A model generated the notes under the pieces. That model did no database searches. It had not been told where the DNA came from and saw only the letters and a list, made by a program, of their open reading frames with translations. This document shows, one piece after another, positions 39,810 through 43,266 of a stretch of 64,000 nucleotides of DNA (position 1 is the stretch's first letter; each line of letters starts with the position of its first letter). This DNA comes from an uncultured Chlamydiae bacterium. Lineage in GTDB: Bacteria; Chlamydiota; Chlamydiia; Chlamydiales; JAJFMA01. Position numbers and translations under genes: made by a program. The stretch lies in contig CAVQMM010000001.1 of the NCBI GenBank assembly GCA_963713615.1, positions 2,464,001 through 2,528,000 on the forward strand, written 5' to 3'.

Positions 39810-41047
39810 AGATTGTCAAAGCAAACGAAGTGTCGCGAAGGTCAATAGATCTTCTAGAAGCTACCAAAGTAGTGATTCCTATTATCCAAGAAGTTAGGGA
39901 CCAAGGCGATGCTGCTCTACGTAAGTATGCGCAGCAATTTGATCGCCAGCAATTGGAACAGATCGTTGTCTCCAAAGCCCGCATAGAAGAGGCCAAACGC
40001 AACATTGATAGCAAACTCCTACAGGCCCTTAACACTGCCAAAACAAATATTGCGGCCTATCACAAAGCTCAACTGCCAAAAGACTGGATGATGTCAATTG
40101 CTCCTGGGATCACTGCTGGACAGCTGATACGCCCTATTTCGAAGGTGGGGTGCTATGTCCCTGGAGGACGCTATCCTCTTGTTTCTACTATTCTCATGAC
40201 AACTATAGTGGCACGAATAGCCGGTGTGGAACAGGTCATCGTGTGTACCCCGCGAGCAGTACCAGAGATCTTGGTCGCGTGCGATCTCGCCGGTGTCGAC
40301 CTCATTTGCGAAGTGGGCGGAGCCCAAGCTATCGCTGCTATGGCATACGGCACGGAAAGTGTTCCAAAGGTTGATAAGATCGTCGGTCCGGGAAATCGCT
40401 ATGTCACTGCCGCAAAAAAAGCCGTGTATGGCGATGTAGGCATTGATTTTCTGGCCGGACCCAGCGAAGTATTAGTCATCGCTGACGACAGCAGCAACCC
40501 AACCTATATAGCCGCAGACCTCATCGCCCAAGCCGAACACGACGACGATGCTATGGCGATTCTCGTGACTCCCTCACGCGCGCTAGCAGAGAAAGTCCTG
40601 GAGGCCCTCGAAGTACAGCTTGCTTCACTCCCAACAGCACAGACAGCTAGACGTTCCTTAGAACAAAATGGCATGATTGTACTAACAGATACACTAGATG
40701 AGGCTTTTGATGTCAGTAATCGTCTGGCTCCTGAACACTTAGAAATTCTTCTGGAGAACGTCGATGTATTGGATAAGATCAAAAGCGCCGCATCAGTATT
40801 TCTCGGAATGTATTCCGCTGAGGCCCTCGGTGACTACGCCACAGGTCCAAACCACGTGCTGCCAACGGGCGGAGTAGCTGCCTGGCAGTCGGGCCTAAAC
40901 ATTTATGATTTTATTAAGCAAATTACCGTGCAACAAGTGACTCCTGAAGGAATCCTTTCAGTGGGTGGTACAGTCTCAACATTGGCGCGCCTCGAAGGTC
41001 TCGAAGGTCACGCCCGCGCAGTACAAGTGAGGATGCAATCATGTTGA
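39806..41047 (+). CDS. hisD: Histidinol dehydrogenase
   Basis: YVPGG, GGAQAIAA, GPGNRYV, AGPSE, QAEH, APEHL, GPNHVLPT. Confidence 0.97.
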   Translation: MKIVKANEVSRRSIDLLEATKVVIPIIQEVRDQGDAALRKYAQQFDRQQLEQIVVSKARIEEAKRNIDSKLLQALNTAKTNIAAYHKAQLPKDWMMSIAPGITAGQLIRPISKVGCYVPGGRYPLVSTILMTTIVARIAGVEQVIVCTPRAVPEILVACDLAGVDLICEVGGAQAIAAMAYGTESVPKVDKIVGPGNRYVTAAKKAVYGDVGIDFLAGPSEVLVIADDSSNPTYIAADLIAQAEHDDDAMAILVTPSRALAEKVLEALEVQLASLPTAQTARRSLEQNGMIVLTDTLDEAFDVSNRLAPEHLEILLENVDVLDKIKSAASVFLGMYSAEALGDYATGPNHVLPTGGVAAWQSGLNIYDFIKQITVQQVTPEGILSVGGTVSTLARLEGLEGHARAVQVRMQSC

Positions 41048-43266
41048 AGCCAAAAAATGCTGTGGTCAATCTGCCTATATATGCAGCGCCACCAGAAGGA
41101 CGCATGGGCTCTCTTCGGCTAGACTTTAACGAAAACACGCAAGGCGCCAGCCCCAAGGTCCTTGCGGCCTTAAGAGCCGTAACGGCTGCCGAATGCGGTT
41201 GCTATCCGGAGTATGACGAACTCAAAAAAGCTCTAGCGCGCTATCTAGGACTAGATACTGCCATGGTTCTACCCACCAATGGTAGTGATGAAGCCATCAA
41301 AATCGTCTTCGAGACTTTCGTTAGCAAGAACGACAAGGTCATTTTACTTACTCCAACTTTTTCAATGTATGAAGTCTATGCAACCCTAGCGGAAGCTAAT
41401 CAGGTGGTTATCCCATTTGCAGAATGTGACGATTTCGCCTACCCGGTCGAGGCCATCCTCAATGCCATTGACGGTGAAACGAAACTGGTTGTCCTGGCCA
41501 CTCCGAACAACCCTACAGGCTCAACGATCGCACGCGAAGACCTTATTCGCATCATCGAAAAAAATCCCAATACGGCGATTCTCATCGATGAGGCCTATGC
41601 AGCCTTTGCCAACTCAAGCTCCACTGACCTAGCCGCTAAATATAGCAATGTGCTTGTGACACAAACGTTTTCCAAAGACTTTGGTTTAGCAGGTTTGCGC
41701 ATCGCCTATTTGGTCTCACAAGCCGCCAATGTTCATTGGCTGAAACGTGTCATCAATCCCTATAGCGTCAATAGGTTCGCCGTTGTCGCCGCCATGGCAG
41801 CTCTTGAAGACCAGGCCTTTCTTAAACAGCATGTAGAAGAGGCCATCATGGCCCGAAACTTCTTTGCTTCTAAGATGGCAGAGCTGGGCTACAAAACATA
41901 TCCCTCGCAAGCAAACTTTCTGCTGGTCAATTTTGGCAAAGATGCAGAGGCTATCCTCGATCGTCTACGTAAGAGCAATATCCTCGTTCGCAATAAAAGC
42001 GGTCTCGTCAGGATCTCTTTTGGGAGTATCCAAGAGGCGCAACAGGTTCTGGAAGCCATCTCCGCACCGAAGACGGCCCTAATCTTCGATATGGATGGCG
42101 TCTTGGTCGATGATAGCCTGTCTTACTTAGAGTGTATCAAGAAAACAGTGGAACAACTGCTAGGCCAAAGCATAGACAACGCCGTAGTCAAAGCCGCCAA
42201 AGCTGGCGGAGGCTGTAACGACGACTATGACTGCGTCGCCAAAATATTGGCCGAAAACGGTAAGGTAGTCCCTCCAGAAACCATTGCTGAACTCTTTGAC
42301 GCCTACTACGAAACCTTCAAGTTTCAAGAAACATGGCTGATCGATGAAGCGATTCTAGCTAACCTACGCACAAAATATAGCTTAGGTATATGCACAGGAC
42401 GTCCTAAACGCGATGCGGTGGATGCCCTGCAACGGTTCAGCAAAACGCATGTCTTCGACATCGTGATTACCCGAGATGACGTTGACAAAGGAAAACCTGA
42501 TCCCGAGGGTTTAAATAAAATCCGCTCAACTCTAAACGCCACCAAAGCAATCTTCATTGGGGACAACCCCGATGACGCTTTGGCAGCCGAGAGGGCGGGC
42601 TATGCCTTCATCAAAGCAACTCCCTCAACACCTACTGCATGGCTGCTGGGAGAGATCAATCGTCTCATGAACCCCACTAAACGTGAAGCTTATATAGAAA
42701 GGCGGACCAAAGAAACAGACATCATCGCCAATCTAAACATCGACGGAATGGGCCAAGCATGCATCCAGACAGGTATTGGCTTCTTTGATCACATGCTCGA
42801 CGCCTTTACAAAACACGGTGGCTTTGACCTCAAAATTACCTGTCAGGGCGACCTACACATCGATCAGCACCACACCGTCGAGGATGTCGGTATCGTCCTG
42901 GGTGAAGCTTTTGCCAAAGCCCTGGGAGATAAGCGAGGCATTGCCCGCAGTGGATATTTTGTGTTTCCGATGGATGAAAGCCTAGCTATCTGTGCCCTCG
43001 ATCTATCCAATCGTCCGCACCTCACCTGCAATATAGAGGTTGGCGCACTGCGTATTGGAGACTTTGACACGTTGAATCTGTCCAATTTTTTCTCGGGGTT
43101 CGTGAAAGGTGCGCAAGTGAACTTGCACGTTCAGGTGCCCTATGGCATGGATCCACACCACAAGGTGGAGGCTCTCTTTAAGGCCTTTGGCAAAGCCCTA
43201 AGCATGGCCTGCACCCTAGATGCAACACGCACTGGCGTAATTCCTAGTACAAAAGGACTATTATGA
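41041..43266 (+). CDS. Triple fusion: histidinol-phosphate aminotransferase + HAD phosphatase + imidazoleglycerol-phosphate dehydratase
   Basis: HisC motifs (LDFNEN, NGSDE, PNNPTG, DEAY, TFSKDFGLAGLR); HAD motifs (FDMDGVLVD, KPDPEG, GDNPDD); HisB motifs (TGIGFFDHML, HHTVED, PMDE, HHKVEALFKA) in one 741-aa frame. Confidence 0.93.
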   Translation: MLKPKNAVVNLPIYAAPPEGRMGSLRLDFNENTQGASPKVLAALRAVTAAECGCYPEYDELKKALARYLGLDTAMVLPTNGSDEAIKIVFETFVSKNDKVILLTPTFSMYEVYATLAEANQVVIPFAECDDFAYPVEAILNAIDGETKLVVLATPNNPTGSTIAREDLIRIIEKNPNTAILIDEAYAAFANSSSTDLAAKYSNVLVTQTFSKDFGLAGLRIAYLVSQAANVHWLKRVINPYSVNRFAVVAAMAALEDQAFLKQHVEEAIMARNFFASKMAELGYKTYPSQANFLLVNFGKDAEAILDRLRKSNILVRNKSGLVRISFGSIQEAQQVLEAISAPKTALIFDMDGVLVDDSLSYLECIKKTVEQLLGQSIDNAVVKAAKAGGGCNDDYDCVAKILAENGKVVPPETIAELFDAYYETFKFQETWLIDEAILANLRTKYSLGICTGRPKRDAVDALQRFSKTHVFDIVITRDDVDKGKPDPEGLNKIRSTLNATKAIFIGDNPDDALAAERAGYAFIKATPSTPTAWLLGEINRLMNPTKREAYIERRTKETDIIANLNIDGMGQACIQTGIGFFDHMLDAFTKHGGFDLKITCQGDLHIDQHHTVEDVGIVLGEAFAKALGDKRGIARSGYFVFPMDESLAICALDLSNRPHLTCNIEVGALRIGDFDTLNLSNFFSGFVKGAQVNLHVQVPYGMDPHHKVEALFKAFGKALSMACTLDATRTGVIPSTKGLL

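Follow-up and report, generated by a model that had tools for sequence, protein, structure and literature searches.

A predicted HisC-HAD phosphatase-HisB fusion in a complete his operon of an uncultured Chlamydiae bacterium

A window of 64,000 nucleotides from the genome of an uncultured Chlamydiae bacterium (assembly GCA_963713615.1, contig CAVQMM010000001.1, positions 2,464,001 to 2,528,000) contains a histidine biosynthesis gene that encodes a histidinol-phosphate aminotransferase (HisC), a phosphatase of the HAD superfamily and an imidazoleglycerol-phosphate dehydratase (IGPD, HisB) in one polypeptide. We regard it as probable that these domains catalyse steps 7, 8 and 6 of the pathway, that the gene came about when three neighbours in the operon were fused, and that its product is tethered on a cage formed by the IGPD domains. 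We find the fusion to be genuine, rare and convergent, with apparently no earlier description, and it is built from ordinary enzymes by a gene-fusion path whose stages are visible.

The frame runs from an ATG to a TGA with zero internal stops and overlaps hisD (end 41047) on its 5' side and hisH (start 43263) on its 3' side. Its product of 741 amino acids is laid out as HisC (residues 1-342), HAD phosphatase (343 to about 543) and IGPD (547-741), which are matched in Pfam by Aminotran_1_2 (26-340, E 3e-57), HAD_2 (347-524, E 3e-22) and IGPD (577-720, E 1e-61), respectively. The original prediction described a single 741-residue frame with three domains and intact catalytic motifs in each; this is borne out by the unbroken frame, by Pfam and NCBIfam and by motif alignments, and the predicted positions hold as well, the DMDGVLVD motif starting at D350 (nucleotide 42088) and the IGPD fold near K547 (nucleotide 42679). 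In the AlphaFold2 model, each domain is folded confidently, with a mean predicted local distance difference test (pLDDT) score of 88.9; however, with a predicted template-modelling (pTM) score of 0.60 the relative packing of the domains is left unfixed. HisC structures head the Foldseek matches listed (root-mean-square deviation about 2.1 A), and none of the solved structures matched spans more than one of the domains.

Four homologues drawn from Logan, ENA and NCBI (P0002, P0003, P0004 and P0033) share 60-63% identity with the fusion protein and have the same triple architecture. By domain, the identity of these nearest triples is 56-63% for HisC, 58-62% for HAD and 68-73% for IGPD, a similar degree of conservation in all three, and the distance from HAD motif IV to the RxTxET motif of IGPD is 41 residues in all five near triples. 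Since the four homologues share both the architecture and this junction distance, the fusion is no sequencing artefact. Furthermore, an identical 151-nt contig from another run (X3, 41949-42099) spans the HisC/HAD junction.

The HisC domain passes the curated cut-off of TIGR01141 narrowly (277.1 against 276.55 bits) and carries all catalytic residues, namely Y55, N156, D183, Y186, K212, R220 and R324, which we take to have the roles described for E. coli HisC. All are invariant in 37 aligned homologues, except for N156, which is nearly so. The IGPD domain passes the profile of monofunctional HisB (NF002111, 252 bits against a cut-off of 231), and in an alignment with Arabidopsis IGPD2 both of its metal motifs (H610-H611-x2-E614 and H706-H707) are matched, as is the STKG loop at the C-terminus.

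The HAD domain is of the subfamily IA type with a helical cap and possesses motifs I to IV (D350/D352 of the DxD motif, T452, K485 and D508/D512). A single cap is inserted after motif I (predicted helices 362-374, 380-388, 395-405 and 412-429), and the domain terminates in a predicted helix (532-543). Among the 27 families matched, the best is TIGR01548, with 76.3 bits. The HAD-IIIA models of the HisNB type score weakly (TIGR01656, 30 bits against a cut-off of 84; TIGR01662, 27 against 45), and a description of the protein as HisNB plus HisC was rejected, since NF003937 scores 240 against a cut-off of 443 and the HAD domain has TIGR01548, and not a IIIA model, as its best match. According to the accessible text of PMC10804674, histidinol-phosphatase activity is proven for the archaeal HAD enzymes toHisN and nmHisN. 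There, nmHisN (Nmar_1556) is described as a monomer, as located between hisC and hisB, and as a specific histidinol-phosphatase with zero hydrolysis of nine other substrates; its fingerprint is Y24-D25-K56-E64, that of toHisN is YDRD, and the D25A replacement in nmHisN lowers kcat/KM from 10,822 to 49 per M per s. In the fused HAD domain the fingerprint reads Y-L-K-D (Y362, L363, K387 and D395), the positions being mapped by spacing and pattern and not by direct alignment with nmHisN or toHisN. On this mapping, Y362, K387 and D395 satisfy Y24, K/R56 and E/D64, and I366 and V383 occupy the accessory positions I28 and I52; the codon of L363 is also read in run X2, from which a contig identical over 42059-42209 was obtained. 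Among 79 homologous HAD domains, 69 read Y-R-K-D, and position 25 is Arg in 71, Asp in 3 and another residue in 5. The same accessible text terms the clusters with Arg-25 (cluster II, delta-proteobacterial) 'likely' histidinol-phosphatases. Because L363 stands in place of D25, the fused domain is not filed as a full-fingerprint histidinol-phosphatase; with three of the four residues, it would work like the toHisN/nmHisN type without being a full member of it. Judged from the sequences, step-8 activity is likely for the Y-R-K-D family and somewhat less certain for the fusion protein. The earlier proposal that the fusion implies this activity for the HAD subfamily is thereby kept as a likely role, but it is not wholly new, toHisN and nmHisN being proven (PMC10804674, accessible text).

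The architecture recurs. At least 16 HisC-HAD-IGPD proteins, in at least 14 clusters at 90% identity, were found among the best 150 of 12,801 and the best 120 of 553 matches, so that these counts are a floor. Two clusters of the Micrarchaeia type (P0039 = MFA5106252.1) and five divergent triples, Mastigamoeba balamuthi P0078 and P0055 among them, stand beside the near group and beside P0017, P0040 and P0188. Within the best 120 of 553 long IGPD proteins, HisC-IGPD lacking this HAD type accounts for 72, the triple for 7 and HAD-IGPD for 5. Of 79 metagenome loci, 40 were analysed (39 weak HAD-only matches, L066-L103 and L105, were left out): 24 have separate hisC, HAD and hisB genes in this order, 4 have a HisC-HAD fusion with a separate hisB and none has the triple, and in most of the loci examined the HAD family is situated in his operons. 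Thus every intermediate state is found (separate genes, HisC-HAD with hisB, HAD-IGPD and HisC-IGPD), and IGPD is also seen fused to HisD, HisH and HisA/IE domains; this mix of domain pairings argues for fusion of neighbouring genes. The original prediction of a rare trifunctional enzyme is correct as to rarity and, on present predictions, as to steps 7, 8 and 6, but the enzyme is recurrent and its two-part forms are frequent.

In a concatenated tree of 28 taxa, the fusion protein falls in a 100/100 clade with its fused near homologues (P0004 is absent from this tree), and this clade is sister to four doubles of the same phylum (100/97); P0017, P0040 and P0188 lie outside. A single clade for all 13 triples is rejected (approximately unbiased test, p-AU 0.0004; 4 changes), and placing the seven near bacterial triples together in one clade is compatible with the data (p 0.20). 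Near-duplicates were dropped from these trees, whose reliability is limited by long branches and by an uneven composition; P0062 was included in the IGPD tree alone, and the HAD-only tree is a quick tree. If separate genes are ancestral, the triple is predicted from them to have arisen at least three times.

Some related proteins depart from this pattern. P0055 is a HisD-HisC-HAD-IGPD protein of 1401 residues, which would cover steps 6-10 and groups with the Mastigamoeba triple. P0229 (746 residues, from two sources) carries HisC, an E. coli-type phosphatase with the HAD-IIIA motif and IGPD, which suggests a convergent triple with a different phosphatase. A single open frame upstream of hisD, L053:7425-8654, contains both a HisG-like match and a HAD of this type. 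P0280, an enterobacterial-looking HisC+HisNB known from a single sequence, and P0187, a duplicated HisNB, appear to be artefacts of assembly and were left out of the counts.

Within the phylum, 6 of 400 scored genomes matched, namely the window genome, four others that carry this operon and one that has a degenerate HAD only; IGPD was found in 5 of the 400. In the four other operon-bearing genomes, HisC and HAD are fused, hisB is separate and overlaps the HAD stop, purH comes first and a His leader is present. A search of 40 relatives, three of them congeners with a completeness of 94-99%, gave no IGPD match, and a second sample of 400 genomes (the order of genome G286, partly overlapping the first) yielded no further his operon and no triple. 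One relative, P0028, bears the name Waddliaceae, and the genome has a weak match to Chlam_OMP6, a profile that gave a match in 0 of 14 controls; both point to a chlamydial host. This distribution fits whole-module lateral spread, or an old acquisition with many losses. The degenerate HAD homologue (genome G202, L026:7657-8331, minus strand) has lost its catalytic aspartates in motifs I and IV; IGPD gave no match in G202, and this homologue, which is possibly a pseudo-enzyme, is not surrounded by his genes.

In the proposed mechanism, the IGPD domain would convert imidazole-glycerol-P into imidazole-acetol-P, the HisC domain would transaminate the latter to histidinol-P, and the HAD domain would likely remove the phosphate of histidinol-P via a phospho-intermediate on Asp350, after which HisD would complete the pathway. 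HisC is obligately dimeric. For the IGPD domains, the predicted assembly is the usual Mn-dependent 24-mer with the N-terminus outside, so that the HAD and HisC domains would be tethered on the cage surface, HisC pairing into dimers and HAD acting as spacers, in a particle of about 2 MDa (an estimate at 110 Da per residue). In the accessible text of PMC10978614, the plant IGPD is a 432 24-mer with a width of about 110 A, the N-terminal sheet lying on the outside. The intermediates would most likely diffuse over short distances between nearby sites, without a tunnel. The adjacent hisC, HAD and hisB genes would have been fused stepwise, the likely benefit being a fixed 1:1:1 expression and the co-transfer of a compact, histidine-attenuated operon. 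A bolder view, which we hold to be unlikely, is that of a repeatedly evolved nanoreactor in which a 24-mer with 24 phosphatases and 12 HisC dimers (about 2 MDa) shows measurable channelling, or in which HisC dimers bridge cages into a lattice or condensate concentrating steps 6-8, as part of a mobile, His-attenuated purH-his module that turns an intracellular lineage, auxotrophic as a rule, into a producer of histidine.

Three other explanations were weighed. The long frame could be incidental, a lost stop or an assembly error having joined two genes, with IGPD made separately from an in-frame ATG at 42667 (M543). This ATG sits where related hisB genes begin and has GGAGA 13 nt upstream, and no contig found among those from other runs spans the HAD/IGPD junction; however, P0002, P0003, P0004 and P0033 are fused as well and have no Met at the junction, and the fused near homologues form the fully supported clade with the fusion protein, so that this explanation is hardly credible. 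Some internal initiation may nevertheless occur in this strain. Another possibility is a channelling metabolon, in which docked HisC, HAD and IGPD sites would pass both intermediates without bulk mixing; the original prediction had likewise suggested that the enzyme may channel imidazole-acetol-P and histidinol-P. Three consecutive steps are indeed joined, the triple arose at least three times on the above estimate, the HisC/HAD junction is nearly linker-free, the motif-IV-to-IGPD distance is constant in the near triples, and a his metabolon has been proposed, as unconfirmed, in the accessible text of PMC10138114. By contrast, the domain order is the gene order (7-8-6) and not the reaction order, the motif-IV-to-IGPD distance varies from 14 to 113 residues over all triples, and the model leaves the domain packing unfixed. 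The fusion of IGPD with many operon neighbours, and of HAD with hisG, is expected from adjacency, and the same accessible text quotes the argument that channelling does not raise the steady-state rate. No support for channelling was found and the domain pairings fit neighbour-gene fusion; we judge it distinctly unlikely.

The remaining explanation bears on step 8: HisC and IGPD would be active, and the HAD domain would be weak or act on another substrate, the histidinol-P being dephosphorylated by a housekeeping GmhB-like or IMPase-family phosphatase. Several observations do weigh against the reading preferred here. The fused domain is the sole one among the 79 with Leu (L363) at the position mapped to nmHisN D25, in place of the conserved Arg/Asp, and even Arg at this position is said to put function in question (PMC10804674, accessible text); D358 stands in place of Glu/Val; the domain scores below the TIGR01548 cut-off (76.3 against 140.2 bits); its predicted cap has 4 helices against the 7-9 given for toHisN/nmHisN in the same accessible text; and the genome also encodes a GmhB-like HAD protein (TIGR00213, 151 bits against 149.6) and an IMPase-family protein, which are possible step-8 back-ups in principle. 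As to origin, two fusions and a single fusion followed by fission in the four doubles are equally parsimonious. On the other side, all HAD catalytic motifs as well as Y362, K387 and D395 are retained, the HAD domain is conserved as well as HisC, the IMPase-family protein reaches only 166 against the HisN cut-off of 275, and the HAD family is found in his operons at most loci examined. A HAD domain that is weak or acts on another substrate, with step 8 supplied by a housekeeping phosphatase, is considered improbable, and a three-step enzyme derived from neighbouring genes is preferred.

Table 1. Features of the his operon and of the fusion gene, in positions of the window
Feature	Position	Strand	Basis or remark
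Promoter-like site TTGCAA-17-TACAAT	36640..36668	+	5' of operon; 1 found against 1.3 expected by chance
Leader peptide, 29 aa, six His among last eight codons	36709..36798	+	Short-ORF scan
purH, first operon gene	36946..38385	+	Profile matches
hisI, hisG, hisE, hisD	38396..41047	+	Profile matches
hisC-HAD(hisN)-hisB fusion gene, 741 aa	41041..43266	+	Open frame, Pfam/NCBIfam, AlphaFold2
HisC domain, histidinol-phosphate aminotransferase (step 7)	41041..42066	+	TIGR01141, structural matches; pyridoxal-phosphate lysine K212 at 41674
HAD phosphatase domain, one helical cap, toHisN/nmHisN-like (candidate step 8)	42067..42669	+	Pfam, family profiles, motif alignment, AlphaFold2
HAD key residues D350, Y362, L363, K387, D395	42088 (D350), 42124 (Y362), 42127 (L363)		
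IGP dehydratase domain (step 6)	42679..43266	+	PF00475, NF002111
hisH, hisF, hisA	43263..45302	+	Profile matches

The fusion gene lies in a complete operon of the order purH-hisI-hisG-hisE-hisD-[hisC-HAD-hisB]-hisH-hisF-hisA (36946-45302). Each operon gene is single-copy in the genome, and no second phosphatase gene occurs within the operon. A scan of genome contigs with the HAD domain alone gave a single weak and unrelated locus. The window's promoter-like site is weak on its own; similar, aligned boxes occur upstream in 4/4 related loci. The leader is unique in the genome, being the only one of 49,320 short open reading frames (ORFs) with at least 5 His in the last 10 codons, and a His-run leader is present in 4/4 related loci; in all five, a T run and a short hairpin come next. 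On folding, the leader region scored z = -1.67, and it showed no intrinsic terminator. The His-rich leader is likely a histidine-sensing attenuator. The gene purH heads all four related operons (5/5 with the window), and the five operon-bearing genomes give the top-scoring purH matches (27/401 genomes with a match). Since purM was not found in the genome and purA and purB are present, PurH would likely salvage AICAR (5-aminoimidazole-4-carboxamide ribonucleotide), the HisHF by-product, back to AMP. The GC content of the operon, overall and at third codon positions, is within the genome norm, so that composition gives no support for recent transfer. In a check of the insertion site, the best MFS matches in the three congeners were without neighbour synteny.

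Other features were noted around the operon and elsewhere. Next to the operon, a protein of 1538 residues (45833-50449, minus strand) has a BTB/POZ domain (Pfam) and repeats that resemble leucine-rich repeats by eye; it is a eukaryote-like candidate host-interaction protein. Downstream of hisA (about 45405-45635), a long inverted-repeat element was seen by eye, possibly a small mobile or REP-like element. An ORF (53600-54265) resembles the MFS transporter at 34529-35782, the same congener gene being matched by both, and may be a truncated or frameshifted MFS paralogue. A GmhB-like gene (L110:1399-2193, minus strand) has an N-terminal region with a duplicated stretch of about 35 residues.

A literature search yielded no description of the triple, which subscription papers, figures and supplements could still mention. 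In their accessible text, PMC1963479 inventories five his fusions, none with hisC; PMC10138114 gives hisD, N, B, H, F, I and E as the fused genes and calls the metabolon unconfirmed; PMC8305728 has nothing on hisC fusions; and PMC3901274, PMC11317633, PMC7052976, PMC9309667 and PMC6214176 have nothing on a HisC-HAD-IGPD fusion. The present protein would thus add a fusion that is missing from the inventories of PMC1963479, PMC10138114 and PMC11237513, as far as their accessible text goes, and one of repeated origin across bacteria, archaea and a protist. It would also provide Rosetta-stone evidence for step 8 as the role of the Arg25 branch in the toHisN/nmHisN family; in the accessible text of PMC13759103, HisN is still missing in 42/208 prototrophs. 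In addition, it offers a single-gene system for testing the his metabolon idea and a case for seeing how an octahedral cage makes room for an enzyme that is dimeric, and it marks a rare histidine-making member of the phylum. The chemistry itself is ordinary, and the best payoffs are the Arg/Leu25 phosphatase branch and the dimer-on-cage assembly.

Compared with known systems, the fusion resembles HisNB of E. coli and Salmonella (NF003937) in that a HAD-superfamily phosphatase is N-terminal to IGPD. However, HisNB has a HAD-IIIA phosphatase with short caps and a zinc motif and no HisC, whereas the fusion has one helical cap; the HisNB phosphatase is of independent origin according to the accessible text of PMC10804674. 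HisNB is given as not found in Archaea in the accessible text of PMC11237513, in contrast to which the Micrarchaeia triple joins HAD to IGPD in an archaeal-type protein. With toHisN of Thermococcus onnurineus and nmHisN of Nitrosopumilus maritimus, the HAD domain shares the single helical cap after motif I and the Tyr/Lys/acid fingerprint and, with nmHisN, the place between hisC and hisB; those enzymes are stand-alone, with larger caps and Asp-25, whereas in the present protein the domain has a fusion partner at either end and carries Leu (most relatives have Arg). The oomycete-type HAD-IGPD protein (P0052, Lagenidium giganteum) and the HisC-HAD and HisC-IGPD doubles consist of the same blocks in the same order, but of two domains only. 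Yeast HIS4 (HisIED) is likewise a multi-step histidine polypeptide, but for other steps, and the seven activities of the Acanthamoeba heptafunctional His protein exclude exactly HisC, histidinol-phosphatase and IGPD (PMC6029752, accessible text), the three activities predicted for the fusion protein.

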